Source: Squalus acanthias
Lineage: Eukaryota
Reading direction: 5' to 3'
DNA: 64,000 nt
Assembly: GCA_030390025.1 (NCBI GenBank)
Contig: CM059432.1
Location: 13,890,001-13,954,000, forward strand
The notes under the pieces are model-generated. The model was not told the DNA's origin. It was given only the letters and a program-made list of their open reading frames with translations, and made no database searches. The stretch's first letter is position 1, and each line of letters opens with the position of its first letter. The position numbers were made by a program, and so were the translations under genes. Below, piece by piece: positions 5,861 through 63,312 of the stretch.

Positions 5861-5918
5861 AGACATTCAATGTGTGGCTGCATCTGATGTACATGTATGT
5901 CAACATGCAATTTTATAT

Positions 5919-6263: not shown

Positions 6264-6302
<39 letters not shown>

Positions 6303-6303
6303 G

Positions 6304-6341
<38 letters not shown>

Positions 6342-8655: not shown

Positions 8656-8659
8656 ACAG

Positions 8660-17958: not shown

Positions 17959-18282
17959 AATATTGTACAACAGTATTTTTTGCTAGCGGTCCACATATTG
18001 CGCAAAGCAGGTTTCCCAATATCTGGAAGGCTTTTCACAACTGTAGTATTTGGCACCTGTCTGATGTTTCATGCAATAAAGAGAAAATTGAGGATGGATT
18101 TACCAGCAATTAGAATTGTTTAATAATGTCGTAAACTATGATGGCGAAGTTTGGTTCAAAATTGCCATTTAACCTCAGGAATGACATTTCTGATTGGAAG
18201 TCACCCTATGTATCACGGTGAAGGCCATTCAGACCATATTTATTCATCCATTCAGAATGACCTTAAATTCCCTTCCCCCTTT

Positions 18283-20865
18283 TTTTATTTGTTCATGGGA
18301 TGTGGGCGTCGCTGGCAAGGCCAGAATTTATTGCTCATCCCTAATTGCCCTTGAGAAGGTGGTGGTGAGCTGCCTTCTTGAACCGCTGCAGTCCGTGTGG
18401 TGAAGCTACTCCCACAGTGCTGTTAGGGAGGGAGTTCCAGGATTTTGACCCAGCGACGATGAAGGAACAGCGATACATTTCCAAGTCAGGATGGTGAGTG
18501 ACTTGGAGGGGAACTTGCAGGTGGTGGTGTTCCCATGTGCTTGCTGCCCTTGTCCTTCTAGGTGGTAGAGGTCGCGGGTTTGGGAGGTGCTGTTGAAGAA
18601 GCCTTGGCGAGTTGCTGCAGTGCATCTTGTAGATGGTACACACTGGTGGAGGGAGTGAATGTTTCAGGTGGTGGATGGGGTGTCAATCAAGCGGTCTGCT
18701 TTGTCCTGGATGGTGTTGAGCTTCTTGAGTGTTGTTGGAGCTGCACTCATCCAGGCAAGTGGAGAGTATTCCATCACACTTCTGACTTGTGCCTTGTAGA
18801 TAGTGGAAAGTCTTTGGGGAGTCAGGAAGTGAGACACTCGCTGCAGAATACCCAGCCTCTGGCCTGCTCTTGTTGCCAAAGTATTTATGTGGTTGGTCCA
18901 GTTAAGTTTCTGGTCAATGGTGACCCCCCCAGGATGTTGATGCTGGGGGATTCAGCGATGGTAATCCTGTTGAATGTCAAGGGGAGGTAGACTCTTGTTG
19001 GAGATGGTCATTATCTGGCACTTACCACTTATCAGCCCAAGCCTGAATGTTGTCCAGGTCTTCTTGCATTCGGGCATGGATTGCTTCTTTCTCTGAGGAA
19101 TTGCGAATGGAACTGAACATTGTGCAATCATCAGCGAACACCCCCACTTCTGACCTTATGATGGAGGGAAGGTCATTGATGAAGCAGCTGAAGATGGTTG
19201 GGCCTAGGACACTGCCCTGAGGAACTCCTGCAGTGATGTCCTGGGATGAGATGATTGGTCTCCAACAATAATTGACCTCCAACAACCATAACCATCTTCC
19301 TTTGTGCTAGGTATGACTCCAGCCAGTGGCGAATTTGCCCCCTGATTCCCACTGACTTCAATTTAACAAGGCCTCCTTGATGCCACATTTGGTCAAATGC
19401 TGCCTTGATGTCCAGGGCAGTCACTCTTACCTCACCACTAGAATTCAACTCTTTTGTCCATGTTTGGACCAAGGCTGTAATGAAGTCTGGAGCCAAGTGA
19501 TCCTGATGGAAATCAAACTGGGCAATGATTCGCAGGCTATTGGTGAGTAAGTAGTGCTTGATAGCACTGTCAATGACACCTTCCATCACTTTGCTGATGA
19601 TTGAGAGTAGACTGATGGGGCGGTAATTGCTGGACTGGATTTGTCCTGCTTTTTGTGGACAGGACATACCTGGGCAATTTTCCACATTGTTGGGTAGATG
19701 CCAGTGTTGTAGCTGTACAGGGACAGCTTGGCTAGAGGCATGGCTAGTTCTGGAGCACAAGTCTTCAGCACGACAGCTGGGATGTTGTCAGGGCCCATAG
19801 CCTTTGCTGTATCTAGTGCGCTCAGCTGTTTCTTGATATCACATGGAGTGAATCGAATTGGCTGAAGATTGGCTTCTGTGATGGTGGGGACCTCAGGAGG
19901 ACGCTGAGATGGATCATCCACTTGGCACTTCTGGCTGGAGATGGTTGCAAATACCTCAGTCTTGTCTTTTGCACCCACATGCTGGGCTCTGCCATAATTG
20001 AGGATGGGAATGTTCATTGTCCACCACCATTTACGACTGGATGTGGCAGAACAACAGAGCTTTTATCCGATCCGTTGGTTGTGGAATCATTTAGCTCTGT
20101 CTATAGCATGCTGCTTCTGATGTTTAGCATGCATCTAGTCCTGTATTGAAGCTTCACCAGGTTGGCACCTCATTTTTAGGTACGCCTGGTGTTGCTCTTG
20201 GCATGCTCTTCTACACTCCTCATTGAACCAGGGTTGGTCACCTGGCTTGATGGTAATGGTAGATTGAGGAATATGCCAGGCCATGAAGTTGCAGATTGTG
20301 GTGCAATACAATTCTGCTGCTGCTGATGGCCCACAGCGCCTCATGGGTGCCCAGTTTTGAGCTACTAGGTCTGTTCGGAATCTATCCCATTTAGCACGGT
20401 GGTAGTGCCACACAACACGATGGAGGGTGTCCTCAGTGTGAAGACAGGTCTTTGTCTCCACAAGGATTGTGTGGTGCTCACTCCTACCAGTACTGTCATG
20501 GACAGATGCATGTGCGACAGGTAGACAAAGTCAAGTAGGTTTTTCCCTCATGTTGGTTCCCTCAGGATCTGCCGCAGGCCCAGTCTGGCAGCTATGTTCT
20601 TCAGGACTCGGCCAGCTCGGTCAGTAGTGGTGCTACCAAGCCAGTCTTGGTGGTGGACATTGTAGTCCCCCACCGAGAGTATGTTCTGTGCCCTTGCTAC
20701 CCTCAGTGCTTCTTCCAAGTGATGTTCAACGTGGAGGAGTATTGATTCATCAGCTGAAGGAGGGCAGTAGGTGATAATCAGCAGGAGGTTTCCTTGCCCA
20801 TTTTTGACCTGATGCCATGAGACTTCATGGGATCCGGAGTCAATGTTAAGGACTCCCAAGGCCAC
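18283..20865 (-). mobile_element. LINE family 2 (APE endonuclease + RT, C-terminus KKAAHHHLLKGN), decayed
   Basis: Minus-strand ORF pieces: 20548-20865 (EN, GD.N.HH..W), 19173-19760 (NYRPISLLS, LDIKAAFD), 19022-19285 (GVPQGS, FADD), 18341-18643. Confidence 0.92.
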
Positions 20866-20984
20866 TCGTTGCAGCAGCCAGTCGTTTCTTAATTATTCCA
20901 GATTGCTTTGTCTATACTACTCCATCTGGGTGTCTAATCCAAGTATTGATCACTCTTTGTATGAAGTAGAATTGGTGCCAAATT

Positions 20985-21974: not shown

Positions 21975-23643
21975 GGGGGAGAAATTGAACATCTTTGTGC
22001 CTGCTTTTAAGTGCATTAAATCACCATGGGGGGACTAATTTCAGGTCACGACCCCAATCTCTAATGATTTCTCGGTGTACAGGGCGCCCACCCGAAACAG
22101 GCGCTAGGCGCTCAGCATATTCAATTGAGGGTCCTAATGCAAGTTGTAGGACCCCAATCTTTTTTTATTCGTATAGGCGATGTGGGCGTCACTGGTAAGG
22201 CCAGCATTTATTGCCCATCCCTAATTGCCCTTGAGAAGGTGGTGGTGAGCCGCCTTCTTGAACCGCTGCAGTCCGTGTGGTGAAGGTACTCCCACAGTGC
22301 TGTTAGGTAGGGAGTTCCAGGATTTTGACCCAGCGACAATGAAGGATCGGCGATATACTTCTAAGTCAGGATGGTGTGTGACTTGGAGGGGAACTTGGAG
22401 GTGGTGGTGTTCCCATGCGCCTGCTGCCTTTGTCATTCTAGGTGGAAAAGGATCATGGGTTTGGGAGGTGCTGTCAAAGAAGCCTTGGCGAGTTGCTGCA
22501 GTGCATCTTGTAGATGGTACACACTGCAGCCACGGTACGCCAGTGGTGGAGGGAGTAATTGATTAAGGTGGGCGATGGGGTGCCAATCAAGCGGGCTGCT
22601 TTGTCCTGGATGGTGTCGAGCTTCTTGAGTGTTGTTGGAGCTGCACTCATCCAGGCAAGTGGAGAGTATTCCATCACACTCCTGACTTGTGCCTTGTAGA
22701 TGGTGGAAAGGCTTTGGGAAGTCAGGAGGTGAGACACTCACCGCAGAATATCCAGCCTCTGACCTGCTATGTTGCCACAGTATTTATGTGGCTGGTCCAG
22801 TTAAGTTTCTGGTCAGTGGTGACCCCCAGGATGTTGATGGTGGGGGATTCAGCGATGGTAATACTGTTGAATGTCAAGGGGCGGTGGTTAGGCTCTTGCT
22901 TGTTGGAGATAGTCATAGCCTGGCACTTCTGTGGCGCGAATGTTAACTGCCATTTATCAACCCATGCCTGAACATTGTCCAGGTCTTGTTGCATGCGGGC
23001 ATGGACTGCTTCATTATCTGAGGAGTTGTGAATGGCACTGAACACTGTGCAGTCATCAGCGAACATCCCCATTTCTGACCTTATGTTGGCGGGAAGGTCA
23101 TTGATGAAGCAGCTGAAGATGGTTGGGCCTAGGACACTGCCTTGAGGAACTCCTGCAGCGATGTCCTGGGGCTGTGATGATTGACCTCCAACCACCACAA
23201 CTATCTTCCTTCAATCAAAATTGGTCAGCAAATAGGCGGAGCTTGTGCCACGCTTGTTCTGGCCAGCTGTTGCAGTTCTTCAGCGGTTTAATCAGAGGCC
23301 CTGAAAGGAACCTCTGGAGGCCACCCCAAACAATAGAAATGCGCCTCCTGGCTCCAAAAAATACCGTGGGCTACTCATCCGTACCCATGCCCATCCCCTC
23401 CGCTCTGTCTCCTCCAGGCGCTGCCTGTGGTCAGGCTCGGCGCCAGAGCTGGCGGAATTGGTCAGGCTTCGATCAGCGAGGAGCATAGGGATGCCCAGTT
23501 GGCGTCCGCAGCTCGCCGATTCATTGCAAACAAAGCTCGAGGCCCAATCTTTCTCGGGAACTCAGGCCGAAGTCTTTGGGCGTGCAATGAGAATGTGCCG
23601 CCCATTTTGTGGCGGAAACGGGCACAAGTTGAATTTCTCCCTC
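21975..23643. mobile_element. Harbinger-type MITE in an old CR1, containing a nested LINE family-2 fragment (about 22160-23212, minus)
   Basis: Ends GGGGGAGAAATT / AATTTCTCCCTC with flanks tag / tgg. Removing it restores actctag|gtcttttt. Nested RT ORF at 22767-23198. Confidence 0.72.
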
Positions 23644-24341
23644 TGGGTCTTTTTCAACTTTAATGATTTCAAGATTCATGAATATGTATGTTGCTTGTCT
23701 TTGTTTCCTATGGGCAGTACTTTACACTTGTCTGCATTAAATTCCATTTGCCTTGTTCTGCCTACATATGTCCAACTCATTCTGTAATTTCTGAGCTGCC
23801 TCCTAATGACATTCTGATTGAAGGATGAACGATTGTGATGTAATCGGTACAAATTTATTGATATTTAATTTATAACTAGCAACTACACAGTCATTAGATG
23901 GGGATTAATGGTAGGTTCTCCACGATGGCTCAGTGGGTAAGTACCAGCTCAATGTGGTATTGAGGGATATAGACCCAGAGAGTCACTTTCAATCCCTGAT
24001 CTGACCTGAGTTAGTTGATCTCACCTAGGCCAGCTGTAGGAGTACTTCAGACCCCACTGAGCTTGGTGGAGGGCTGGGCTGCCGAGTGTGCATGTACAGG
24101 CAGTGGATGAGGACAAGTTCAGAATTAGCTGTATTGACCGTCCAAATTTTTGAAGAGTGTGGCAGCTCGCACTGACTATGGTTGCACATTAAGAATGTGT
24201 ACAAGGAGATTGGCCACTTGGCTGAAGTTTCAGGCCAGATTATATGGTCAAGTCTCTGGAGTGGGGATTGAACCGACTACATTCAGAGGTAGGAGAGCTA
24301 CCACTGAGCCACGGCAGACATACATGCCATCGCCATTAGAG

Positions 24342-24905
24342 CAGGTCAGAGGCTCGTTATTCTCACCTCCCGACTCCCCAAAGCCTTTCCACCATCTACA
24401 AGGCACAAGTCAGGAGTGCGATGGAATGCTCTCCACTTGCCTGGATGGGTGCAGCTGCAACAACACTCGAATAGCTCGACACCATCCAGGACATCTACTA
24501 TCCTAAATATCCACCCCTCCATCACCGGCGTACCGTGGCTGCACTGTGTACTATCTACAGATAGCCTGCGGCAACTCGCCAAGTCTTCTTCGGCAGCACC
24601 TCTCAAACCCACGATCTCTACCACCTAGAAGGACAAGGGCAGCAGGCGCATGGGAACACCACCACCTCCAAGTTCCCCTCCAAGTCACACACCATCTTGA
24701 CTTGAAGATATACCATTGTTCCTTCATCGTCGCTGGATCAAAATCCTAGAACTTTCTACCTAACAGCATTGTGGGAGTACCATCACAACACAGATTGCAG
24801 CGGTTCAAGAAAGCAGCTCACCACCACCTGCTCAAGGGCAACTAGGGATGGGCAATAAGTGCTGGCCTTGCCAGTAATGCTCACTTCCTCAGAATTAATT
24901 TAAAA
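24342..24905 (+). mobile_element. LINE family 2, 3' fragment
   Basis: ccatctacaaggcacaagtcagg...ctcaagggcaactagggatgggcaataa tail. Confidence 0.88.
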
Positions 24906-28059: not shown

Positions 28060-29274
28060 ATGGCAGGGCAGGTGGAGTGTCGTAACTGCAGCATGTGGGA
28101 GTCTGTGGGGAGCATCGCGATCCCGAGCAACCACATCTGCAGCAAGTGTCTGCAACTCGAGGAACTTCGGCTCAGAATTGTTGAGCTGGAGTCCGAGCTG
28201 CAGACATTGCGATGCATCAGGGAGGGGGGAGAGTTACCTGGACACTTTGTTCCAGGAGGCAGTCACACCCTTTAGGTTAAGTAGTACTTTAGAGTTCGTC
28301 AATGGTCAGGGACAGGAGGGTGTGACTGAGAGTCAGGAAGGTATGGGGACCCAGGATGTAGTGATGGAGGAGCCTCAGCCCTTGACCTTGTCCAACAGGT
28401 ACGAGGTACTTACTGCCTGTATGGATGAGGAAAAGGACTGCAGGGAGGATGGGCAAACTGACCACGGCACCGTGGTACAGGTGGCCATCCAAGTGAGGGG
28501 AGAAGGAAGGAATGTGGTAGTAGTAGGGGACAGTATAGTCAGGGGGATAGATACTGTTCTCTGCAGCCACGAAAGAGAGTCCCGAAGGCTGTGTTGCCTG
28601 CCCGGTGCCAGGGTTAAGGATATCTCCTCGCAGCTGGAGAAGACCTAGAAGTAAAGGGAATTAGGGGTTACGGGGAGCGGGCAGGAAATTGGACATGAGG
28701 CTGAGTTCGGATCGGTCAAGGCCCTGTGGGTGGCGGAGCGGGCCCAGGGGCTGAGTGGCCGGGTCCTGCTCCTACTTCTTGTGTTCTTTAGATTTGAGGT
28801 TAGGATCAGATAAGCCATGATCGTGTTGAATGGCGGAGCAGGCTCGAGGGGCCGATTGGCCTACTCCTGCTCCTATTTCTTATGTTCTTATGTTCTTAAC
28901 TTGGAGTGGGAGGGGAGGATCCAGTTGTCGTGGTCCATTTAGGAACCAACGACATAGGTAGAACTAAGAATGAAGTTCTGCTGAGGGAGTTTGAGGAGCT
29001 AGGGTCTAAATTAATAAGCAGAACCTCAAGGGTAATAATCTCTGGATTACGACCTGAGCCACATGTAAATTGGCATAGGGTCAAGCAGATCAGAGAGTTA
29101 AATGCATGGCTCAAAGAGTGGTGTGGGAAGAAGGGGTTTCAATTCACGGGGCACTGGCAGCAGTACTGGGGAAAGAGGGAGCTGTTCCGTCGGGACGGGC
29201 TCCACTTAAACCGGGCTGGGACCAGTGTCCTGGCAAATCAAATAACTAGGGCTGTAGATAGGGCTTTAAACTAA
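28060..29274 (+). pseudogene. CR1 ORF1: Cys-rich zinc finger, coiled coil and SGNH/GDSL esterase domain (frameshifted and interrupted)
   Basis: CxxC...CxxC (CRNC/CSKC), leucine-zipper-like helix, VVGDS, LPGA, GTND and DGLH motifs. Confidence 0.88.
28645..28898 (+). mobile_element. Short CR1 3'-end insertion with a doubled 3' UTR
   Basis: Starts in the last ORF2 codons (EVKGIRGYGERAG) and ends (ttcttatg)n. Interrupts ORF1. Confidence 0.85.
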
Positions 29275-31247: not shown

Positions 31248-34178
31248 GAACATAAGAACATAAGAAATAGGAGCAGGAGTAGGCCAATCGGCCCCTCGAG
31301 CCTGCTCCGCCATTCAATAAGATCATGGCTGATCTGATCCTAACCGCCAATCTACTATCTATCACAGAACCATCTCCTGCATCTAACAGAATTGCACACA
31401 CGAAATAGGAGCAGAATCAGGCTACACAGTCCCTGGGCCCGCTCCACTACCCACAGGGCCATGACCGATCCGAACCTAGACTCATGTCCAAATTCCTGCC
31501 CGCTCCCCGTAACCCTTAATGCCCTTTACTTCCAGGAAACTGTCTATTTCTGTTTTAAATTTAATTAATGTTGTAGCTTCTACAGCTTTTTGTGGCAGCA
31601 TATTCCATGGACCTACCACCCTCTGAGTGAAGTAGTTCCTCCTCATCTCAGTTTTGAAAGAGCAGCCCCTTATTCTAAGACTATGTCCCCTAGTTCTCGT
31701 CTCACCCGTCATCGGGAACATCCTCCCCGCATCCACCCGATCCAACCCCTTCACAATCTTATATGTTTCAATAAGATCGCCTCTCATTCTTCTGAACTCC
31801 AATGAGTAGAGTCCCAATCTACCCAACCTCTCCTCATATGACCACCCCCTCATCCCCGGGATTAACCGAGTGAACCTTTTTTGCACTGCCTCGAGAGCAA
31901 GGATGTCTTTCCTTAAGTAAGGACACCAAAACTGTATGCAGTATTCCAGGTGCGGTCTCACCAATACCTTGTACAACTGAAGCAATACCTCCCTATTTTT
32001 ATATTCTATCCCCCTAGCAATGAAAGCCAACATTCCATTTGCCTTCTTAATCACTTGCTGCACCTGCATACTAACCTTTTGAGTTTCGTGCACCAGGACC
32101 CCCAGATCCCTTTGCACTTCAGTACTCTCCAGTTTCTTGCCATTAAGATAATAAATTGCTCTAGGATTTTTCCTGCCAAAGTGCATCACCTCACACTTTC
32201 CAGTGTTGTATTCCATCTGCCAAATCTCTGCCCACTTACTTAGCCTGTCTATGTCCCCTTGCAGGTTTTTTATGTCCTCCTCACTCACTACTTTCCCTCC
32301 CATCTTTGTATCATCTGCAAATTTTGATATGTTACACTTGGTCCCTTCCTCCAAATCGTTAATATAGATTGTGAAGAGTTGGGGACCCAGCACTGACCCC
32401 TGTGGAACACCACTAGTTACTGATTGCCAGTCTGAGAATGAACCATTTATCCCAACTCTTTGCTTTCTGTTGGATAGCCAATCCTCTATCCATGCCAGAA
32501 TATTACCCCCAATCCCGTGATTTTTTACCTTAAGCAATAATCTTTTGTGTGGCACCTTGTCAAATGCCTTTTGGAAGTCTAAATACACTACGTCCACTGG
32601 TTCCCCTTTATCCACTCTATATGTTACTTCCTCAAAGAACTCCAGCAAATTTGTCAAACATGACTTCCCCTTCGTAAAACCATGCTGACTTTGTCCTATT
32701 AAATTATGATTATCCAAATGTCCTGTTACTGTTTCCTTAATAATGGACTCCAAAATTTTACCTACCACAGATGTTAGGCTAACCGGTCTATAGTTACCAG
32801 CCTTCTGTCTACTGCCCTTTTTAAATAAGGGTGTTACATTAGCAGTTTTCCAGTCTGCCAGGACCTTAGCGGAATCCAGGGAGTTTTGAAAAATTATTAC
32901 CAATGCATCTACAATCCCTACCGCCACTTCCTTCAAGACTCTAGGATGTAAGCCATCAGGTCCAGGTGATTTATCCGCCTTGAGTCCCATTATTTTACCG
33001 AGTACCACTTCCTTAGTGATTTTGATCGTGTTTAGCTCCTCTCCCCCTATAGCCCCCTGTTTGTCCAGTGTTGGGATATTCTTAGTGTCCTCTACTGTAA
33101 AGACTGATACAAAATATTCATTCAGTGTTTTTGCCATCTCCATATTTCCCACCATTAATTTCCCGGTCTCATTCTCTAAGGGACCAACATTTACTTTAGC
33201 CACCCTTTTTCTTTTTATATAACTATAAAAACTCTTACTATCTGTTTTTATATTTTTTGCTAATTTACTTTCATAATCTATCTTCCCTTTCTTAATCAAT
33301 CTTTTTGTTATTTTTTGCTGCCTTTTCAAGTTTTCCCAATCCTCTGTCCTCCCACTAGATTTCGCTACCTTATATGCCCTTGTTTTTAGTCGAATACTAT
33401 CCTTAATTTCTTTACTTAGCCACGGATGACTGTCCTTTCTTTTACACCCTTTTCTTTTCAGTGGAATATATATTTTTTGGAAGTTGTAAAATAACTCCTT
33501 GAATGTACACCACTGATCATGTGTCGTCTTACCCTTTAATCTATTTTCCCAATCCACTCTACTCAATTCCGCTCGCATACCTTCATAGTCTCCTTTATTC
33601 AAGCTTAGCACGCTTGTTTGAGATCCAACCTTCTCACCCTCTAATTGAATATGGAATTCAACCATGTTATGGTCACTCATTCCAAGGGGATCCTTTACTA
33701 GGACATTTTTAATTAATCCTGTCTCGTTACACAGGACCAGATCTAAGGTTGCTTGCCCCCTGGTCGGTTCAGTTACATACTGCTCAAGAAACCCATCCCT
33801 AATACACTCAATGAACTCATCCTCAAGGCAGCCCTGCCCCATTTGATTTGTCCAATTAATATGATAGTTAAAATCCCCCATAATTATAGATGTTCCCTTA
33901 TTACATGCATCAACTATTTCCTGATTGATACTCCGTCCAATAGAGTTGCAACTGTTCGGAGGCCTATAGACTACGCCCACTAATGTTTTTTTCCCCTTAT
34001 TATTCCTTATCTCCACCCAAACTGTTTCATTATCATGATTTTTTGACCCAATATCATTACTCTGTATTACAGTGATTCCTTCCTTTATTAACATAGCCAC
34101 CCCACCTCCCCTTCCTTCCTGCCTGTCCTTCCTGATCGTTAAATAACCTGGTATGTTTAATTCCCAGGCATTGCCTAA
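31248..34178 (-). mobile_element. Young 5'-truncated CR1 with an uninterrupted ORF2 (EN partly missing, RT complete)
   Basis: Stop-free 910-aa ORF at 31482-34214, of which the first ~15 aa are read-through from the host. Motifs YRPP, GDFN, SDH, FADD. taata duplicated at both ends. Confidence 0.95.
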
Positions 34179-34489
34179 TATAGTAGCATGGATAGAGGAT
34201 TGGTTAACGGACATAAAACAGAGAGTAGGGATAAAAGGATTTTTTCAGGTTGGCAGGCTGTAACTAGATCGACTAAGTGAGTGGGCAGTAAGGTGCAGAT
34301 GAAGTATAATGTAGGGAAATGTGAGGTTATTCACTTTGGTAGGAAGAATAGAAAATCATTATATTTTTTAAATGATGAGAAACTTTCAAATGTTGGCGTT
34401 CAGAGAGATTTGGGTGTCCTCGTGCAAGTAACACAGAAAGCTAGCATGCAGGTACAGCAAGCAATAAGGAAGGCAAATGGCATGTTTTA

Positions 34490-36008
34490 AAAAAAAATGT
34501 TTTTATTCATTTTATGGGATCAGGGCATCACTGGCAATGCCAGCATTTATTGCCCAAGCCTAGTTGCCCTTGAGAAGGTGGTGGTGAGCCGCCTTCTTGA
34601 ACCGCTGCAGTCTGTGTGGTGAAGGTACTCTCACAGTGCTGTTAGGTAGGGAGTTCCAGGATTTTGACCCAGCGACGATGAAGGATCGGCGATATACTTC
34701 TAAGTCAGGATGGTGTGTGACTTGGAGGGGAACTTGGAGGTGGTGGTGTTCCCATGCGCCTGCTGCCCTTGTCCTTCTAGGTCGTGGGTTTGGGAGGTGC
34801 TGCCGAAGAAGCCTTGGCGAGTTGCTGCAGTGCATCTTGTAGATGGTACACACTGCAGCCACGGTGCGCCAGTGGTGGAGGGAGTGAATGTTTAAGGTGG
34901 TGGATGGGATGCCAATCAAGCGGGCTGCTTTGTCCTGGATGGTGCGAAGCTTCTTGAATGTTGTTGGAGCTGCACTCATCCAGGCAAGTGGAGAGTATTC
35001 CATCACACTCCTTTCTTCTGCCTTGTAGATGGTGGAAAGGCTTTGGGGAGTCAGGAGGTGAGACACGCGCCGCAGAATACCTAGCCTCTGACCTGCTCTT
35101 GTTGCCACAGTATTTATGTGGCTGGTCCAGTTAAGTTTCTGGTCAATGGTGACCCCCAGGATGTTGATAGTGGGGGATTCGGTGATGGTAATGCCGTTGA
35201 ATGTCATGGGGAGGTGGTTAGACTCTCGCTTGTTGGAGATAGTCATTGCCTGGCATGTCTGTGGCACGAATGTTACCTGCCACTTATCAGCCCAAGCCTG
35301 AACGTCGTCCAGGTCTTGTTGCATGCGGGCATGGACTGCTTCATTATCTGTGGAGTTGCGAATGGCGCTGAACATGGTGCAGTCATCAGCGAACATCCCC
35401 ATTTCTGACCTTATGTTGGAGGGAAGGTCATTGATGAAGCAGCTGAAGATGGTTGGGCATAGGACACTGCCCTGAGGAACTCCTGCAGCGATGTCCTGGG
35501 GCTGAGATGATTGACCTTCAACCACCACAACCATCTTCCTTTGTGCTAGGTATGACTCCAGCCAGTTGAGCGTTTTCCCCCTGATTCCCATTGACTTCAG
35601 TTTTACCAGGGCTCCTTGATGCCAGACTCGGTCAAATGCTGCCTTGATGTGAAGGGCAGTCCGTCTCACCTCACCTTTGGAATTCAGCTCCTTTGTCCAT
35701 GTTTGGACCAAGGCTGTAATGAGGTCGGCAGCTGAGTGGTCTTGGCGCAACCCAAACTGGGCATCTGTGAGCAGGTTATTGGTGAGTAAGTGCCGCTTGA
35801 TAGCACTGTCGATGACACCTTCCATCACTTTGCTGATGATTGAGAGTAGACTGATGGGGCGGTAATTAGCTGGATTGGATTTGTCCTGCTTTTTGTGGAC
35901 AGGACATACCTGGGCAGTTTTCCACATTGTCGGATAGATGCCAGTGTTGTAGCTGTACTGGAACAGCTTGGCTAGAGGCGCGGCTAGTTCTGGAGCACAA
36001 GTCTTCAG
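34490..36008 (-). mobile_element. LINE family 2, 5'-truncated, RT region open
   Basis: 455-aa ORF at 34560-35927 ending HHHLLKGN. Confidence 0.93.
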
Positions 36009-36353
36009 CCTTTATTACAAGGGGATTGGAGTATAAGAGTAAGGAAGTCTTGCTACAATTCTACAGAACCTTGGTGAGATCACACCTGGAGTACTGTGCA
36101 CAGTTTTGGTCTCCTTATCTAAGGAAGGATATACTTGCCTTGGAGTCGGTGCAACGGAGGTTCACTAGATTGATTCCTGGGATGAGAGGGCTGTCCTATG
36201 ATGAGAGATTGTGTAGTATGGGCCTATACTCTCTGGAGTTTAGAAGAATGAGAGGTGATCTCATTGAAACATACAAGATTCTGAAGGGGATTGACAGGGT
36301 ACATGCTAAGAGGTTGTTTCCCCTGGCTGGAGTGTCTAGAACTAAGGGGCAAT

Positions 36354-38880: not shown

Positions 38881-40957
38881 GTGGGAACGATAGCGTAGTG
38901 GTTATGTCACTGAGCTAATAATCCAGTAGGCCTAGACTAATGATCCAGAGACGTGAGTTCAAATCCCACCATGGCAGCTGGGAATTTAAATTCAGTTAAT
39001 TAAATAAATCTGGAATAAAAAAGCTAGTATCAGTAATGGTGACCATGAAACTATCGGATTGTCGTAAAAACCCATCTGGTTCACTAATGTCCTTTAGGGA
39101 AGGAAATCTGCCGTCCTTACCTGGTCTGGCCTATATGTGACTCTTAACTGCCCTCTGAAATGGCCCAGCAAGCCACTCAGTTGTAACAAACTGCTAAGAA
39201 ACAAAATAATAAGAAAGAAACCGAATGGACCACCCGGCATCGACCTCGGCACCGGTTATGGACACGGCAACGGCACACCCAGCCCAGTCAACCCTGCAAA
39301 GTCCTCATCATCAACATCTGGGGACTTGTGCCAAACTTGGGAGAGCTGTTCCACAGACTAGTCATACTCACAGAATCATACCTTTCAGCCAATGTCCCAA
39401 AATCCTCCATCACCATCCCTGGGTATGTCCTGTCCCACTGGCAGGACAGACCCACCAGGGGTGGCGGTACATTTGGGAAGGAGTGGCCTTGGAGTCCTCA
39501 ACATTGACTCCGGACCCCATGAAGTCTCATGGCTTCAGGTCAAGCATGGGCAAGGAAACCTCCTGCTGATTACCACCTACCGCCCTCCCTTAGCTGATGA
39601 ATCAGAACTCTGCCATGTTGAACACCACTGAGCGTAGCAAGGGCACAGAATGTACTCTGGGTGGGGGTCTTCAATGTCCATCACCAAGAGTGGCTCGGTA
39701 GCACCACTACTGGCCGAGTCCTGAAGGACATAACTGCCAGTCTGGGCCTGCGACAGGAGCTGAATTCCAGAGGTGAGGTGAGAGTGACTGCCCTTGACAT
39801 CAAGGCAGCATTTGACTGAGTGTGGCATGAAGGAGCCCTAGTAAAACTGAAGTCAATGGGAATCGGGGGAGAAAATTCTCCACTAGCTGGAGTCATACCT
39901 AGCACAAAGGAAGATGGTTGTGGTGATTGAAGGTCAATCATCACAGCCCCAGGACATCGCTGCAGGAGTTCCTCAGGGTAGTGTCCTAGGCCCAACCATC
40001 TCCAGCTGCTTCACCAATGACCTTCCCTCCAACATAAGGTCAGAAGTGGGGATGTTCGCTGATGACTTCACAGTGTTCAGTGCCATTCGCAAATCCTCAG
40101 ATAATGAAGCAGTCCATGCCCGCATGCAGCAAGATCACGACGACATTCAGGCTTGGGCTGATAAGGGCAGCTAACATTCGCGCCACACAAGTGCCAGGCA
40201 ATGACTATCTCCAACAAGCGAGCGTCTAACCACCGCCCCTTGACATTCAACAGCATTACCATCGCCGAATCCCCCAGCATCAACATCCTGGGGGTCACCA
40301 TTGACCAGAAACTTAACTGGACCAGCCACATAAATGTTGTGGCAACAAGAGCAGGTCAGAGGCTGGGTATTCTGCAGCCAGTGTCTCACCTCCTGACTCC
40401 CCAAAGCCTTTCCATCATCTACAAGGCATAAGTCAGGAGTGTGATGGAATACTCTCCACTTGCCTGGATGAGTACAGCTCCAACAACACTGAAGAAGCTC
40501 AACACCATCCAAGACAAAGCAGCCCGCTTGATTGGCACTCCATCCACCACCTTAAACATTCACTCCCTCCACCACCGGTGTACCGTGGCTGTAGTGTGTA
40601 CCATCTACAAGATGCACTGCAGCAACTCGCCAAGGCGTCTTTGACAGCACCTCCCAAACCCGTGACCTCTACCACCTAGAAGGACAAGGGCAGCAGGCGC
40701 ATGGGAACACCCCCACCTCCAACTTGCCCTCCAAGTCACACACTATCCTGACTTGCAAGTATTTCGCCATTCCTTCATCGTCGCTGGGTCAAAATCCTGG
40801 AACTCCCTCCCTAACTGTGGGAGTACCTTCACCACACGGACTGCAGCGGTTCAAGAAGGCGGCTCACCACCACCTTCTCAAGGGCAACTAAGGATGGGCA
40901 ATAAATGCTGGCCTTGCCAGTGACTCCCATATCCCATGAACAAATAAAAAAAAATAA
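38881..40957 (+). mobile_element. LINE family 2 copy retaining a tRNA-like 5' head, internally deleted near 39755
   Basis: A box TAGCGTAGTGG at 38891, B box GTTCAAATC at 38957. Endonuclease start CKVLIINIWGL...LTESYL from 39295. RT ORF 39914-40174. 3' tail and A-rich end. Confidence 0.85.
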
Positions 40958-42273
40958 ACCAGCCAGAGTTCCTGCTTGTGAAAACTATCCAACAAACTCT
41001 GTTGGAAGTGGTGAAGATGGCCCATTTGGTTGAACATGGTCATTAGAGTAGGTGTGTCTCAGGTATTGTAGTTATCCTTAGATGAGTAGGAGTAAAGGAA
41101 GAAAATTGCAGAAGGATATGAATAATAAGAAACAAGCTGGACCAATGTGTAGCTGACCAGCACTATCTTCAATCTAAACAAAGCAAACTACGTAGGTATG
41201 AGGGGCGAGTTGGCTAAGGTAGATTGGGAAACTACATTAAAAGGTATGACGGTAGACAAGCAATGGCCAGCATTTAAAGAATGAATACATAATTTACAAC
41301 AAATATACATTCCTTTAAGGCACAAAAAACCCCACAGGAAAAGCAGTCCAACCGTGGCTAACAAGAGAAGTTAAAGATAGTATTAAATCAAAGATAGAGG
41401 TTTATAATGTTGCCAAAAAGAGTAGTAAGCCTGAGGATTGGTCAGAATTTAGAATTCAGCAAAGGAGGACCAAGAAATTGATAAGGAAAGAGAACAAAGA
41501 ATATGAGAGTAAATTAGCAAGAGACATAAAAACAGATTGTAAACGTTTCTATAGGTATGTAAATAGGAAGAGATTAGTGAAATTAAATGTGGGCCCATTA
41601 GAGACAGAGACAGGAGAAATTATAATGGGCAATAAGGAAATGGCAGAGACATTAAACAAATACTTCACGGTAGAAGACACAAAAAACATTCCGGAAATAA
41701 TGGGGAACCAAGGGTCTAGAGAGAATGAGGAACCTAAAGAAATCAGTATAAGTAAAGACATAGGGGGAAAAATTCAGTTGGTTGCGCCTCCCGTTAGCGC
41801 CTTAAGAGGGTGCTAATGGGGCGCAAAGCAACTAGCGCCTGGGCGCGGCGATGTTTGCGCCGCTCGCGAACTTAACTAGACATTTTGCGGCGGCGCTAAA
41901 CTTTACCGCCGCGATCTCCTGCGCACGCAGATCTTGACGTCATACGAGGGTGCAACGCCCTTGTGGCGCCCCGGAGCGGAAATTGAGTGGCGCCCCCAAC
42001 CTTTCCGCCTGGCGCAACCAACGACCGGAAGACTGGAATGCTATCAGTCGCTGTGGGGCTGGGGGGGGCGCTATTTAAAGGGGGCCTCTTCCTGTCTTTC
42101 TCTGTGGTTGACATTTTTGCACCACTCGTTCTGAGAGAGAGAGAGAGATTCGGAGAGAGAGAAAGAGAGACTTCTGCATTGAGTCAACACTGTGTGAGGT
42201 AGTTTTGGCTACTGATCATAACTTGGCAGGTACTTTGGTTTTTGGCCTTCATAACTTTGCTTGCTAAGAGACT

Positions 42274-43304
42274 ATGGGGGCTGCACTGATTGGGGGCGTC
42301 GTCCTGCGCCAGCTGAATCGGAGGACACAGAGACGCAGAGAGAGAGTGGCAATCATGGCCAGACGGAGGAGGGCCAACAGGCGTCTGTACAGGAGAGCTT
42401 ACCCTCCCAGGGTATATCGTCAACAGCTCTCCTACATTCATATGTCTGAGGAGCAGTGTTTGCGAAGGCTGCGCTTCAGCAAGGAGGTGGTCACTGAGCT
42501 CTGCCACCTGCTGCAGCCAGATCTGCAGCCTCAACTGAGGTCCAGGACGTCTCTGTCAGTGGCAGTGAAGATCACAGTGGCTCTGAACTTTTATGCTACT
42601 GGCTCATTTCAATCTGCTGCTGGGGACATCGCCAATATCTCCCAGTTCGCGGTGCATTGCTGCATCCGTCAGGTCACAAATGCCCTCTTTAAAAGGAGAC
42701 GAGAGTACATCTCTTTCCCCATGACCCCAGACAAGCAGCATGAACGCGCTCTGGGCTTTGCGAGGATAGCGGGCTTCCCCATGGTGCAGGGCGCCATTGA
42801 CTGCACGCATGTGGCTTTGCGTGCTCCGCATGAGAATGCCGAGGATTTCCGGAACAGAAAGGGGTTCCATTCCTTGAACGTTCAGTTGGTCTGTGACCAC
42901 AGACAGCTGATACTCGCTGTCAATGCCCACTATCCTGGCAGCTGCCACGATGCTTTCATCCTGCGCCAGACTACTGTGGCAGAACTTTTCGAGGCACCGC
43001 ATCAGCCAGTTGGTTGGCTTCTCGGGGACAAGGGGTATCCACTGAGCACCTGGCTGATGACACCGCTCCATACGCCCAACACCCCTGCTGAGCTGCGGTA
43101 CAACGAGAGCCATCAAGCTACCAGGAACATCGTTGAGCACACAATCGGCGTGCTCAAGCAACGGTTCCGCTGTCTGGACCATTCTGGAGGAGCCCTGCAG
43201 TACTCGCCTGAGCGAGTTTCCCACTTCGTAGTTGTGTGCTGCATGCTGCATAACATGGCAATCCTCAGGACCCAGCCAATGCCACCAGGCCTTGGAGCAC
43301 CACC

Positions 43305-43335
<31 letters not shown>

Positions 43336-43434
43336 GAGGAGGATGATCATCAGCAGCACCAAGGCGGGAGGGCGGCCCACAATGTTGAAACTGCAAGGGC
43401 CGTCCGTCAACGGCTGATAGCAAGCCGCTTCTAG
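42274..43434 (+). CDS. Harbinger/PIF DDE transposase (HARBI1-like), intact, 386 aa
   Basis: GAIDCTH, NRKGFHSLNVQLVCD, PGSCHDAFIL, LLGDKGY, YN..H..TRNIVEHTIGVLKQRFRCL, CCMLHN motifs and an acidic tail. TATA-like tatttaaa near 42072. Confidence 0.95.
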
Positions 43435-43733
43435 GCCCCTGCTGAGGAAATGGCTTCTGCCATTGAGAACAACATGAATGAAACCAACCCGCAACCCCTA
43501 AGCCGGCCAAGGCACCAATGATTCCAAAGACCAAACATGTATATTTTGAATACAAAAACTTATTTATTTCACAAACTCTGTGTGTGTCATTTCCTCATGA
43601 CAAACTAATAGAAAGAAACACAAAAACACAGTCATTAACAGAACTGGTTCTCATAACCTGGAGATAATGTCCAAAAGTTTGACCACGAACCTTAGCCTTT
43701 AATAAAAAAATGACCAACATTTTGTCACACCTC

Positions 43734-45639
43734 CTACTTTTTGCCCTTCGAGGGTGATCTCCTTCCCTTGCGCACTTCCCCCCTTCCCACCCAACTGCTC
43801 CTCCGTAATGGGACCTCAGTGGCTGCAGCAAGGCTGGTGGAAGGCTGCTGATTGTCAGAACCTGAGACTGCAGATGCCCTTGAAGGACAGCCTCGACCAG
43901 CTCTGGGCCTGGAGGGCCCGGCTGCAGACTGCACCAACTCTGCATGGGCGGCAGCAGTCTGTCCTACAGGCGGTGGCAAGTGCAGTGGAGAAGTGACAGT
44001 GGTGGCAGCAGGAATGCTGTCATCTTGAGAGAGGACAGCAACTCCCTGCTCGACCGACACACTGGCACTCCCACGGGGCAGCACTTCAGCATCCGGAGCA
44101 ATCTGCTGGAGCACAGATTGCTGGCCTGCTGCGGCGCGGTGAGAGCCCTGGGGAAATGTGTACGAACCATCGAGGATGGCAGCAGTCAGTGCTCGCGTGG
44201 CCTCAATCTGAGTCTGCATGAGAGCAGTCTGAGACTGAATTGCAGCACTAAGCTTTAGTGTGGCATCCGCCTGTGCTACAGCGAAGTGCTCCACACTCCT
44301 TGCCAGTGATTCAATGCATTCGGGCACCCTTCCCACTGCACCCATGAGCTCAGTGTGCATGTCCACCGCCTGGGTGTTCATTTCAGCGATGAGCCGCTCC
44401 TCCTCTGCGTCCAGTGCAGTAGGAGTCGCTGGCATACTCTCCCTCCGGGGAGAAGGCCCCCGTTCTTCCCTACCCCCATGGCGTTGCTGCAGCCCGCTGG
44501 GTCCTGGAGCTTCACCCTCATCAGACCCTTCCCCCCTGCTCCCCTCCAGGGAAGGCGTGTTCCCAGTGTGGGCATGGGCTTCCTCGGGAGAGGGTGGCAC
44601 TGATGCTCCGCCTTCATCTTCCTCCTCGCCTGCAGCTTCACTCCCATTGGCAGCTTGAAGGCCCGTCTCCTCAGCTGGTGAATCACCATCTGAAAGCAGG
44701 GAGGTACAAGAGTGGCTTTAGCGTGAGGACAGGGTGGCAGTAAGGGAGGAATAAGTGCAGCGATTTAGTAAGTTGGATTGAAAGTGTCAAAGGCTGGTGT
44801 TGTGAGGGACAAGTGGAAGGACAGAGGACAAAAAGGTGATGACCTTACCATTGCTGTCCAGAACGGGGTCGGCGTCTCCAGTGGCAACGGGACCGATCAC
44901 CCGGCTTGCCACAATCCTCTGGACGCGCGCCTCAAGATCGCTGAGGGGTTGCAGCTGAGGCTGCCCTCCACCCGTCTGTTGCTGCTGTCTCCTATTATGA
45001 GATAGCTTGGCCCGCAAGAAAAAGGACGGCGTCTGAGTAAATATACAGCCATGGTCTTGCCTGATGTGCCTCCCATAGGTGAATAGCCCTTACTGTATGC
45101 AGCCATGGTCTTGCCTGATGTACCTCCCATAGGTGAATAGCCCTTACTGTATGCAGCCATGGTCTTGCCTGATGTGCCTCCCATAGGTGAATAGCCCTTA
45201 CTGTATGCAGCCATGGTCTTGCCTGATGTACCTCCCATAGGTGAATAGCCCTTACTGTATGCAAAGTGTGGAATGTGCATGTGTGTTTCATGAGAGGGCC
45301 ATAGGTGTTGGATGAGTGTTGTGCATTGGGGTTTTAAGACCCTCTGGCCATAGAGTGAGGTTAAGATGGAGGGATGGAGAGGTATTGAAAAAAAGCCACT
45401 CACCCTGATGATCCGAGTGAGGTCGTTGAACTTTTACGACATTGTACATGGATCCTAGGCACCATCCTCCTGCAGGAGACGCTCTGAGCCACCTCCCTCC
45501 ACACTCTTCTGTACTCGCGCGGCAAAGGCCTCCTGCCACTCTCAGGGAAGAGTATAGATCTTCTGCGCTCCACCGCGCCAACCAGAGCCTCCAAGGCCCG
45601 CTCGCTGAAGCGCTGAGCTCGTTCTCTCACCCTCTCTAT
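43734..45639 (-). pseudogene. Harbinger Myb/SANT-like DNA-binding partner gene, 3 exons (about 45639-45404, 45011-44849, 44689-43734), disabled
   Basis: RERAQRFSERALEAL...W.EVA...QCRK(K)FNDL and AKLSHNRR...TGGG motifs. Donors gtgagt and gtaagg, exon-3 acceptor tttcag. Lesions: probable ATG>ATA, a 1-bp deletion near 45432, and an exon-2 acceptor reading cgg instead of cag. Confidence 0.82.
45046..45261. repeat. 54-bp minisatellite, 4 copies, in intron 1 of the Myb-like gene
   Basis: cagccatggtcttgcctgatgt(g/a)cctcccataggtgaatagcccttactgtatg x4, alternating g and a. Confidence 0.95.
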
Positions 45640-46734
45640 AGTCCTTGGCTGGAAGATTTAGGCACAGGTCTCTCTAGGCCGAGATTCAAGGCTCCAATGA
45701 GCAGGGTGTGGCTGGAGTGCAAGATCGACCCTCCCCTTTAAGAACTGTCTGGCGCCAGTGTGTCTGTGTTCCATCGCTAACTGACAGCACCTGCGCTGCG
45801 CCCTGCGCTCTGAGTTAGCGCCTCGCTCCTCGGCCTTTGCGCCTTAAGACAGGTGTGTAGCGCCTGATTTAGCACTCCAATCACCTCCAGGGGCGGTAAA
45901 AGTCAAGTTTGCAGTCGGAGGCGATAATTAGCGCCAGGCGCTAATCTTTGCGCCCGGCCGAAAATTGCGCCCCAAACGGGGCGATACTGAATTTCTCCCC
46001 CATAGTGCTGGAGAAATTAATGGGGCTAAGTGGCAACAAATCCCCTGGACCTGACGACCTGCATCCTAGGGTTTTAAAAGAGGTAGCTGCAGAGATAGTG
46101 GATGCATTGGTATTAATCTTCCAGAATTCCCTAGATTCTAGAACAGTCCCCAAGGATTGGAAGGTAGCAAACATAACCCCTCTATTTAAGAAAGGAGGAA
46201 GAGAACAAATGGGGAACTATAGGCCAATTAGCCTGACATCAGTAGTAGGCAAAATGTTAGAATCTATTAGTGAGAAGTGGTAACAGGGCACTTAGAAAAT
46301 CATAATATGATTAGGCAGAGTCAACATGCTTTTATGAAAGGGAAATCGTGTTTGACAAATCTGTTAGAATTTTTTGAAGATGTAACTAGTAGGGTGGATA
46401 AGGGGGAACCAGTGGATGTAGTATATTTGGATTTTCAAAAAGCATTCGATAAGGTGCCACACAAGAGGATCTTACACAAAATTAGGACTTATGGTATTGG
46501 GGGTAATATATTAGCATGATTGAGGATTGGTTAATGGACAGAAAACAGACAGTAGGAATAAACGGTACTTTTTCAGGTTGGCAGGCTGTAACGAGCGGGG
46601 TACCGCAATGATCAGTGCTGGGGCCTCAGCTATTAACAATCTATATTAATGACTTAGATGAAGGGACTGAGTGTAACGTATCCAAGTTTGCTGATGATAC
46701 AAAGTTAGGTGGGACAGTAAGCTGTGAGGAGGAC

Positions 46735-47223
46735 CCCCAGCATCGAAGCTTTGACCACGCTCGATCAGCTCCGATGGATGGGCCACATCGTCTGCATGCC
46801 CGATTTGAGACTGCCAAAGCAAACGCTCTACTCGGAGCTCTGACACGGCAAGAGAGCCCCAGGTGGGCAGAGGAAACACTTCAAGGACACCCTCAAAGCC
46901 TCCTTGAAAAAGTGCAACATTCCCACCGACACCTGGGAATCCCTTGCCCAAGACCGCACAAAGTGGAGGAGAAGCATCTGGGGAGGGGCTGAACACCTCG
47001 AGTCTCTTTGCCGGGAGCAAGTGGAAGCCAAGCACAAACAGCAGAAGGAGCGCACGTCAACCCAAGAACCCCACCCACCCGCCTCTTCAACCACCGTCTG
47101 CGCCACCTGTGACAGAGACTGTAGGTCCTGCATTGGACTCATCAGTCACCTGAGAACTCATTTTTAATGTGGAAGCAAGTCATCCTCGGTTCCGAGGGAC
47201 TGCCTGAGTAGAAGGAGAAGAAG
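46735..47223 (+). mobile_element. RTE-type LINE 3' fragment
   Basis: [12 protein letters not shown]...CATCDRDCRSCIGLISHLRTH, then an (aga)n-like tail. Confidence 0.85.
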
Positions 47224-49399: not shown

Positions 49400-51052
49400 A
49401 AATTCGTTTATGGGATGTGGGCGGCGCTGGTAAGGCCAGCATTTATTGCCCATCCCTAGTTGCCCTTTGAGAAGGTGGTGGTGAGCCGCATTCTTGAACC
49501 GCTGCAGTCCGTGTGGTGAAGGTACTCCCACAGTGCTGTTAGGAGGGCGTTCCAGGATTTTGACCCAGTGACGATGAAGGAACAGCGATATACTTCTAAG
49601 TCAGGATGGTGAGTGACTTGGAGGGGAACTTGCAGGTGGTGGTGTTCCCATGCGCCTGCTGCCCTTGTCCTTCTAGGTGGAAGAGGTCGCGGGTTTGGGA
49701 GGTGCTGCCAAAGAAGCCTTGGCGAGTTGCTGCAGTGCATCTTATAGATGGTACACACTGCAGCCACGGTACGCCGGTGGTGGAGGGAGTGAATGTTTAA
49801 GGTGGTAGATGGGGTGCCAAGCAAACGGACTGCTTTGTACTGGATGGTGTCGAGCTTCTCGAGTGTTGTTGGTGCTGCAGTCATCCAGGCAAGTGGAGAG
49901 TATTCCATCACACTCCTTACTTGTGCCTTGTAGATGGTGGAAAGGCTTTGGGGAGTCAGGAGGTGAGACACTCGCCGCAGAATACCTAGCCTCTGACCTG
50001 CTCTTGTTGCCACAGTATTTATGTGGCTGGTCCAGTAAAGTTTCTGGTCAATGGTGACCCCCAGGATGTTGATGGTGTGGGATTCGGCGATGGTAATGCT
50101 GTTGAATGCCAAGGGGCGGTGGTTAGACTCTCGCTTGTTGGAGATAGTCATTGCCTGGCACTTCTGTGACACGAATGTTACCTGCCACTTATCAGCCCAA
50201 GCCTGAACGTCATCCAGGTCTTGTTGCATGCAGGCATGGACTGCTTCATTATCTGTGGAGTTGCGAATAGCGCTGAACATGGTGCAGTCATCAGCGAACA
50301 TCCCCATTTCTGACCTTATGTTGGAGGGAAAGTCATTGATGAAGCAGCTGAAGATGGTTGGACCTAGGATCCTGCACTGAGAAACTCATGCAGCGATGTC
50401 CTGGGGCTGAGATGATTGACCTTCAATCACCACAACTATCTTCCTTTGTGCTAGGTATGACTCCAGCCAGTGGAGAGATTTCCCCCTGATTCCCATTGAC
50501 TTCAGTTTTACTAGGGCTCCTCGATGCCACACTCGGTCAAATGCTGCCTTGATTTCAAGGGCAGTCCGTCTCACCTCACCTCTGGAATTCAGCTCCTTTG
50601 TCCATGTTTGGACCAAGGCTGTAATGAGTTCCGGGGCCATGTGGTCTTGGCGGAACCCAAACTGGGCATCAGTGAGCAGGTTATTGGTGAGTAAGTGCCG
50701 CTTGATAGCACTGTCGATGACACCTTCCATCACTTTGCTGATGATTGAGAGTAGACTGATGGGACGGTAATTGGCCGGATTGGATTTGTCCTGCTTTTTG
50801 TGGACAGGACATACCTGGGCAGTTTTCCACATTGTCGGATAGATGTTAGTGTTGTAGCTGTATTGGAACGGCTTGGCTAGAGGCACGGCTAGTTCTGGAG
50901 CACAAGTCTTCAGCATGATAGCCGGGATGTTGTCGGGGCCCACAGCCTTTGCTGTATCCAGTGTGCTCAGCCATTTCTTGATATCACGTGGAGTGAATCG
51001 AATTGGCTGAAGACTGGCTTCTGTGATGGTGGGGACCTCAGGAGGAGGCCCA
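49400..51052 (-). mobile_element. LINE family 2, 5'-truncated
   Basis: ORFs 50386-51084 and 49456-50307 with RT motifs. Confidence 0.92.
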
Positions 51053-62941: not shown

Positions 62942-63312
62942 TTTTTTTTTTCGTTCATGGGATGTGGATATCACTGGCAAGGCCAGCATTTATTGCCCAT
63001 TCCTAGTTGCGCTTGAGAAGCTGGTGGTGAGCCACCTTCTTGGACCACTGCAGTCAAGGAACCCCCACAGTAGCAGTTTGGTACAACTAATAGTTAAGAG
63101 TCTGGAGGCAGATTTCCTTCCCTAAAGGACATTAGTGAACCAGATAGGTTTTTAATGGTCATCATTACTGATACTAGCTTTTTATTGCAGATTTTTTATT
63201 TAATTAGCTGAATTTAAATTCCCCAGCTGCCGTGGTGGGATTTGAACTCATGATCATTAGTCCAGGCCTCTGGATTACTAGGCCAATAACATAGCCACTA
63301 TGCTACCATACC
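62942..63312 (-). mobile_element. Short element joining the tRNA-like head/body directly to the LINE family-2 tail (SINE or internally deleted LINE)
   Basis: The reverse complement reads ggtagcatagtggctatg...gagttcaaatcccacc...ctggttcactaatgtcctttaggg...ccagcttctcaagcgcaactaggaatgggcaataaatgctggcc. Confidence 0.8.

Follow-up and report, generated by a model that had tools for sequence, protein, structure and literature searches.

A LINE family of Squalus acanthias with a tRNA-like head on its coding unit, a candidate for transcription by RNA polymerase III

Introduction

In the account of Kojima, 2024, LINEs are coding elements transcribed by RNA polymerase II (Pol II), SINEs are non-coding elements transcribed by Pol III, and the Pol III retrotransposons described are all short and non-coding (PMC10886601). 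Several tRNA-derived SINEs, such as Bov-tA, CoeSINE4 and SINE2_Gav, are described as built on bipartite LINE sequences of the RTE and Vingi types (Kojima, 2018; PMC5786205). Full-length elements of the Zenon type have been reported from five elasmobranchs in a preprint according to which they lack ORF1, end in a poly-A tail and are absent from repeat databases (bioRxiv 10.64898/2026.01.13.699120). Persaeus, a lepidopteran Zenon derivative, is presented as an internally deleted element with neither tRNA homology nor a Pol III promoter (PMC6740152). Further related work is available (PMC7245038 with its supplement 1, PMC11481361, PMC3747384, PMC4824008, PMC6685494).

The type of promoter sequence that is normally found on short, non-coding SINEs stands in the family described here at the head of a 3.3-kb coding element of sharks and rays. 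We analyzed a stretch of 64,000 nt from S. acanthias (assembly GCA_030390025.1, contig CM059432.1, positions 13,890,001 to 13,954,000), hereafter the window, in which a sequence-only reading had proposed a protein-coding LINE driven by Pol III.

Results

The head-to-endonuclease junction recurs throughout the genome

As that reading had stated, only one copy in the window, at 38883-40957, carries both the head and the ORF, the other head belonging to a SINE at 62942-63307. The positions given for the A box, the B box, the stop codon (39184) and the start of the endonuclease (EN; 39295) were all correct (Table 1). This copy is a dead element: 1158 nt of the middle of its ORF are missing, with the break at about 39755, and the rest of the ORF contains further smaller deletions and stop codons. 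Its leader has lost 26 nt (205 nt here against 234 nt in the family), and about 37 open codons lie between the leader and the EN start.

Table 1. Positions in the window of the headed copy, its parts and the other family members
Feature	Positions	Strand	Basis
tRNA-like head; starts at 38883 (GGGAAC)	38883..38978	+	shared start in full-length copies; Rfam tRNA match
A box TAGCGTAGTGG, element position 9	38891..38901	+	fits box A pattern
B box GTTCAAATC, element position 74	38957..38965	+	sequence read
5′ leader, also body of derived SINEs	38979..39183	+	alignment to family
TAA closing ORF frame upstream	39184..39186	+	kept in nearly all aligned LINE copies
Remains of the single ORF: basic N-terminal part, APE endonuclease (39295 onwards), RT	39187..40891	+	family frame, Pfam on sister copies
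3′ stem-loop common to LINE and SINEs	40891..40935	+	folding of family sequence and copy
3′ end and A tail, without target-site duplication	40936..40957	+	sequence read
5′-truncated family copy, older, 8% from consensus	18280..20870	-	
5′-truncated family copy with one interior T4 near 22446	22157..23211	-	
3′ fragment of family LINE	24338..24888	+	
5′-truncated family copy, open 483-codon RT frame, T8 behind A tail	34500..36011	-	
5′-truncated family copy; end is a T7 run followed by A's	49402..51052	-	
SINE-like derivative: head and leader up to first ORF codons, joined to last ~140 nt of LINE	62942..63307	-	

The 3.7-Gb genome was searched for the head together with the EN start, and 40 of 8346 candidates were scored. 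The 39 scored loci other than the window copy all span the junction, and 18 of the 20 junction loci that were fetched (14 of 16 without duplicates) continue through the reverse transcriptase (RT) to the same 3′ tail. As a control, copies were picked on the EN sequence alone and the first 20 of 39 matches were read upstream: 15 of the 20 run into the head (10 up to the A box), five are cut short within the same family sequence, and none has any other 5′ end. A 30-mer across the leader/ORF boundary has 541 exact matches in the genome and a 29-mer at the EN start has 3307, two counts that cannot be converted to a fraction because the leader/ORF word is the more variable; it is exact in only two of the 20 EN-picked copies. 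Full-length copies share their starting base and have unrelated flanks. The expectation that they would carry this head inside a common target-site duplication was borne out for the head and not for the duplication, which none of the 20 head-picked loci has, 18 of them being complete at the 3′ end. These results indicate that head and EN-RT ORF form one unit, as proposed, and that their junction is a heritable trait of the family. The alternative that a SINE and a LINE lie side by side at 38883-40957 by accident is refuted by the 39 scored loci, the 15 EN-picked copies and the 541 exact matches, and we give it next to no probability.

The family is an autonomous APE-type LINE

A consensus of 3312 nt was built from 35 copies, mostly 3-5% diverged (16 long loci, five window copies and 14 5′ pieces, duplicates excluded). 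It consists of the head (1-95), the leader (96-329), the ORF (330-3248), a 3′ hairpin and an A tail. The ORF is a single open frame of 973 codons for EN and RT with the E, YRP, GDFN, SDH and FADD motifs, and Pfam Exo_endo_phos_2 and RVT_1 are above cut-off on genomic copies. Numerous copies are 5′-truncated and end at the common 3′ end, a trait of non-LTR elements of the APE-type LINE group. SINEs are short and non-coding, a description that applies only to deleted derivatives of this element, which is itself 3312 nt long and coding. The family is an autonomous APE-type non-LTR retrotransposon.

Many deletions between short direct repeats were observed in the fetched copies L031-L070 and in the window copy despite their divergence of 3-5%, and the same deletion often recurs in unrelated copies. 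Among 101 deletions, 41% end in at least three matching letters, against 6% by chance. In another copy (L047), the element is interrupted at 2823-6399 (element orientation) by an element with two frames of more than 620 codons.

The window also contains CR1 copies at 8506-10640, 28058-31177 (with a piece of a GDSL esterase ORF1), 58687-60971 and 31482-34244 (minus strand), the last of which has an open EN-RT frame of 920 codons and is therefore young. A Harbinger-type DNA transposon at 42268-44717 encodes an intact 388-aa DDE transposase (Pfam DDE_Tnp_4), and an opposing frame of 327 aa in the same element has no Pfam match. Fragments at 13464-14108 (minus strand), 46646-47056 and 51882-52358 are, we presume, similar to L2 RT and to the C-terminus of RTE-type elements. 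Short tandem repeat arrays at 55817-56249 and 44897-45433 give long repetitive open frames.

The ORF lacks an in-frame AUG before EN and shows a modest sign of coding constraint

The absence of ORF1 and of an in-frame AUG before EN, noted earlier for the window copy, is true of the whole family. Only 329 nt precede the ORF frame, leaving no room for ORF1, a Zenon trait, and the first methionine of the frame is residue 287, past the whole EN domain. Nine ATGs occur in the first 460 nt and none opens into the ORF. The ATG at 303 is in frame and reaches a stop by 327 at the latest; the ATG at 358 is out of frame and is lost in 14 of 31 copies, on which ground initiation there followed by a frameshift was rejected. 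The first near-cognate codon of the ORF is an ACG at codon 4. Two relatives whose proteins begin A-T-K align at their N-termini with the basic stretch that precedes EN, and in an older subfamily a shared 3-nt indel lies directly after the GCT-ACG codons and keeps the frame.

Changes shared among copies lean towards silent ones, with a silent to non-silent ratio of 70:109 against 259:617 for private changes (P 0.013), and there is no stop among the 51 changes common to at least three copies. This points, if modestly, to a need for the protein in source copies and to selection having kept the ORF in the source lineages.

The head is only weakly tRNA-like and the leader has no distinctive fold

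The Rfam tRNA model matches 38900-38977 with 23.2 bits (E 0.025), which is weak and below the 29-bit gathering score, and ARAGORN called no tRNA. The head, which may resemble tRNA-Gln, contains a tandem duplication of 20-22 nt of an anticodon-arm-like segment between the A and B boxes, and it did not form a cloverleaf on folding. The start of the element is fixed 8 nt upstream of the A box, the same spacing as in tRNA genes and tRNA SINEs. In the A box, only CpG-type variants are common to several copies, and the B box has no variant in three or more copies; the conservation of both boxes among copies is no better than that of the leader or the ORF.

For the leader, no fold was better than those of shuffled sequences, which provides no support for an IRES. 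A dicistrovirus-type IRES is likewise unsupported, Rfam giving only weak matches at the level of the tRNA match. The leader was compared by eye with the printed Deu domains of AmnSINE1 and hagfish SINEs; it is unlike these domains except for a 7-letter word, and on this comparison identity with Deu/SacSINE1 was rejected. No likeness to the printed alignments of the Meta and UCON3 domains was seen by eye, and we know of no likeness in the leader to the CORE and V domains.

T clusters are moderately avoided on the coding strand

The family sense strand is only 19% T. The sequence-only reading had found no run of four or more T (T4) in five copies, and this holds for 38881-40957, 18283-20865, 24342-24905 and 49400-51052, but not for 34490-36008, where a T8 follows the A tail at the 3′ terminus. 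The T4 near 22446 is indeed a point mutation, absent from the consensus and private to its copy. A-runs are common, as reported, and merely at expectation (12 against 10.4-11.9). The neighboring CR1s are rich in T4 (31 in 8390 nt), as had also been remarked, against one in 9387 nt of family interior in the window. Across the 35 copies (60,801 nt) we counted four interior T4, each private. The claim that T4 as such is depleted did not survive the codon-keeping shuffle, in which the observed zero is within expectation (1.8 expected, P 0.12); with CpG decay fixed as well, 1.4 are expected in the ORF (P 0.22).

Shuffles of this kind retain a low T content and a codon usage that would themselves be the outcome of selection, and finer measures were therefore examined, several in number, against nulls that preserve the protein, the codon usage and the CpG decay, with P values uncorrected (P 0.001-0.02 overall). 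T|T across codon boundaries occurs 8 times against 19.2 expected (P 0.001), none of 18 Phe codons adjoins another T (4.0 expected, P 0.003), TTTT or a word one letter off is absent from the ORF (4.0 expected, P 0.014), and 6-mers with at least four T number 8 against 24.2 (P 0.001), compared with 104 against 111 in CR1. A|A and T|A across codons are not depleted (T|A 0.88, P 0.14), and the effect is thus specific to the strand and to T. RNase L-type avoidance, which is directed at UA/UU, was rejected on the same T|A value.

The T|T ratio of 0.42 is below that of all 50 related metagenome ORFs of at least 700 aa (0.66-1.40), and the same protein written with CR1 or uniform codon usage would be expected to contain 5-6 T4, with a probability of none of about 0.002. 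Three CR1 frames and the Harbinger transposase in the window show no T-cluster avoidance, except that T|T is slightly short of expectation in one of the CR1s (38 against 47, P 0.027). Isolated TT are low in both the family (6 against 12.1) and CR1 (13 against 20.2), T after T within codons is not rarer than in CR1, and newly arisen shared changes that create a T show no clear tendency to keep away from existing T's. Phe makes up 1.8% of the family protein, and only five of 155 relatives have a lower residual. Taken together, the avoidance of T clusters is real but moderate; what stands of the proposed T depletion of the sense strand is this significant avoidance, confined to the coding strand, the absence of T4 alone not being significant.

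Two observations were made on relatives. One clade, which includes a lancelet element (P0125, P0018, P0023, P0024 and P0025, available as proteins only), has the lowest Phe contents of the 155, 1.5-1.8%, similar to that of the family. A metagenome relative with about 35% RT identity (L134:1-3018), whose 3018 nt are 25% T, is free of T4, and its ORF has none against 5.4-6.8 expected, possibly by chance as it is one of 67 ORFs tested; it is a candidate for a second LINE that avoids T. Its contig does not include the 5′ end and is hence headless as assembled.

3′ ends and SINE-like derivatives

The window copy forms the same 3′ hairpin fold as the family (z -0.9, not significant). In nine of 19 independent LINE ends, a T4 or longer run lies within 18 nt of the hairpin, in seven of them at the same place. 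Pooled LINE and SINE 3′ ends in the genome, counted as exact matches, comprise 9464 plain A tails, 2193 with T2, 1335 with T3 and 2245 with T4 or more, far above the 3307 matches to the EN start, as 5′ truncation would lead one to expect. This continuum of lengths fits the oligo-U ends of Pol III transcripts and priming at T/A-rich targets equally and was not counted as support. One insertion of Persaeus is reported to have a T6 duplication (PMC6740152), and T4 is described as a context-dependent terminator of Pol III (PMC4758252).

SINEs with the same head are abundant in the genome. In a sample of the window element at 62942-63307 and 17 fetched loci (of 40 scored, chosen for length), the SINE-like elements consist of the first 330-340 bases of the LINE joined to its last 70-140. 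The junction from 328 to 3210 has 498 exact matches in the genome; that from 325 to 3239 has three here and was also seen in contigs of other organisms. The first ORF codons are retained in longer forms and can have come only from the full LINE. Some of the junction variety may be due to later deletion, given the microhomology at 41% of the 101 deletions. The SINEs sharing the head have spread without other promoter parts. Their make-up suggests that they arose from the headed LINE by deletion of the ORF; the order may instead have been the reverse, a SINE having donated its head to the LINE through template switching within the leader common to both.

Four contig runs, presumed to be RNA, cover all 30 bins of the element and contain the head-to-tail SINE joint in three cases, and no piece listed in the four runs bridges the leader/ORF junction. 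Being contigs only presumed to be RNA, with no junction-bridging piece listed, they have no bearing on transcription or on the junction elsewhere.

Relatives of the family

Among named proteins, those of Heptranchias, Heterodontus and Rhincodon come closest (70-84% over 170-200 aa), followed by lancelet and moth elements (35-39%), and distant protein matches come from lancelet, brittle star, moth and marine contigs. RT identity is 41-52% to invertebrate single-ORF elements including that of the moth, 35-36% to the window CR1s and 34% to the window L2; the RT tree was built without labelled Zenon references and does not fix the place of the family. A search for the family pattern in viral contigs gave no match. 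Scanning of 56 of 80 metagenome loci of distant relatives found no tRNA, by a method (ARAGORN) that misses the family head too, and none of the 26 relatives with at least 300 nt upstream has a pair of A and B boxes. There is accordingly no comparative replicate of the combination of head and T avoidance, and together with the lack of tRNA likeness in Persaeus this makes the head look like a lineage-specific gain.

Discussion

A pathway that would unite these features begins with a Zenon-type (CR1-group) LINE of sharks and rays in which a tRNA-derived head has become a permanent part of the 5′ end. TFIIIC and Pol III would use its A and B boxes, with the start at element position 1, and Pol III would transcribe all 3.3 kb until it meets a first T run, either at the 3′ end or downstream of it. 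Selection on source copies may have reduced T clusters in the coding strand, sparing Pol III an internal stop. The uncapped RNA would be translated from a non-AUG codon just after the conserved TAA, likely within the first ten codons, and the EN-RT protein would bind the 3′ hairpin and carry out target-primed reverse transcription, mostly with 5′-truncated products. Such a mode of integration, with mostly 5′-truncated inserts, is established for the LINE group. Deletion of the ORF from the headed LINE would leave a ready-made tRNA SINE. From the sequence evidence assembled here, we consider it likely that the family is transcribed by Pol III, and we slightly favor the fuller reading, in which a Pol III promoter of the tRNA type drives the LINE and the resulting RNA is itself translated, from a non-AUG start. 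The most far-reaching version, a first autonomous coding retrotransposon on Pol III, with an uncapped 3.3-kb RNA, a non-AUG start, an ORF reshaped against terminators down to its Phe usage and repeated loss of that ORF to give tRNA SINEs, seems to us evenly balanced between true and false.

One objection to Pol III is that the enzyme is regarded as poorly processive on templates this long (PMC10886601). Transcription by Pol II, with a head captured from a SINE, a Pol II promoter in head or leader, and T avoidance explained by base composition or by counter-selection of U-rich signals (polypyrimidine tracts, downstream polyadenylation elements or U-rich sensing), would agree with the description of LINEs as Pol II units (PMC10886601, PMC5786205), with the 19% T of the sense strand and a T4 count inside the shuffle range, with boxes no better conserved than their surroundings and with the A tail, a reported Zenon trait (bioRxiv 10.64898/2026.01.13.699120). 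Nevertheless, ribosomes scanning a capped RNA would meet eight upstream AUGs, none opening into the ORF, and the element begins at a constant 8 nt from the A box. Avoidance of T clusters is not seen in the CR1s of this genome, which are presumably Pol II units, and SINEs with the same head have spread without other promoter parts; we regard Pol II transcription as unlikely. The absence of ORF1 is no evidence for Pol III, as it is reported for all Zenon elements (bioRxiv 10.64898/2026.01.13.699120).

Two further explanations retain part of the Pol III reading or replace it. Pol III might make only the template, the protein coming from capped host RNAs that run over some copies, either Pol II read-through products or spliced transcripts, and the element would be a giant SINE served in trans by its kin. 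This arrangement would account for the head, the fixed start and the T avoidance without translation of an uncapped RNA, fits the finding of neither an AUG nor a structured leader, and relies on a trans-mobilization by the family RT that the SINEs show to work. A passenger ORF, however, should decay, yet the consensus is intact and the shared changes lean silent, if modestly, and we rate this arrangement somewhat below Pol II transcription. By analogy with R2, whose ribozyme frees the element from a host transcript, the tRNA-like head might instead be cut by RNase P at position 1 from a host read-through RNA. A 5′ end at the tRNA-like start and the weak match to the tRNA model would suit such processing, which is nonetheless quite improbable given a head with a duplicated arm and no cloverleaf fold, and which offers no reason for the avoidance of T clusters.

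If a Pol III transcript of the headed LINE is indeed translated, the division into Pol II LINEs and Pol III SINEs would be broken by an autonomous LINE on a tRNA-type promoter, a vertebrate would have a natural Pol III mRNA of several kilobases, and the leader would be one that supports cap- and AUG-independent translation. The headed LINE would also offer a direct origin of SINEs by internal deletion, opposite to the route by which a head is joined to a LINE remnant.

Single steps of this scheme have precedents. The ORF of R2 is translated without a cap, from an RNA cut out of a Pol I transcript by a ribozyme, and ORF2 of L1 is translated without an AUG, from a capped Pol II RNA that also carries ORF1; the two are precedents for cap-less and AUG-less LINE translation, respectively. 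Retrotransposons with a Pol III promoter derived from a small RNA, as proposed here, are represented by the TRIMp3 elements Cassandra, Helenus and Ajax, which are described as non-coding LTR elements of 0.3-1.3 kb, in contrast to a 3.3-kb non-LTR element encoding its own enzymes (PMC10886601). The SacSINE1/DeuSINEs of sharks are tRNA-headed and similar in length to the short elements (up to 463 bp), but are reported to have a Deu domain and a tail tied to L2-2_CM, unlike the leader and tail here (PMC5499810). Bov-tA-type SINEs combine a tRNA head with a 5′ and a 3′ part of a LINE, which is the make-up of our short elements; in the model given for them, the head joins a non-coding, deleted LINE while the autonomous LINE stays with Pol II, and the 5′ parts described are of RTE and Vingi only, whereas here the head sits on a full coding LINE of the Zenon clade (Kojima, 2018; PMC5786205).

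The elasmobranch Zenon elements share with the family a single APE-RT ORF, the absence of ORF1, an A tail and shark or ray hosts (bioRxiv 10.64898/2026.01.13.699120). On the match of these descriptions, they are probably the same family. The main text of the preprint contains no occurrence of 'tRNA' or 'polymerase'. A tRNA-headed coding LINE is not described in the literature searched, which did not extend to Repbase, Dfam and most subscription journals; the family itself is probably in print, and a description of its tRNA-like head was not found there, although the supplements of PMC5499810 and of the Zenon preprint may contain its 5′ sequence. Compared with Persaeus, in whose published description no tRNA homology figures, the short element and its parent LINE here both carry the tRNA-like head (PMC6740152). 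The family is SINE-like at its promoter and LINE-like otherwise; we place it as a variant among the Zenon-type LINEs, and it may well prove to be a category of its own.
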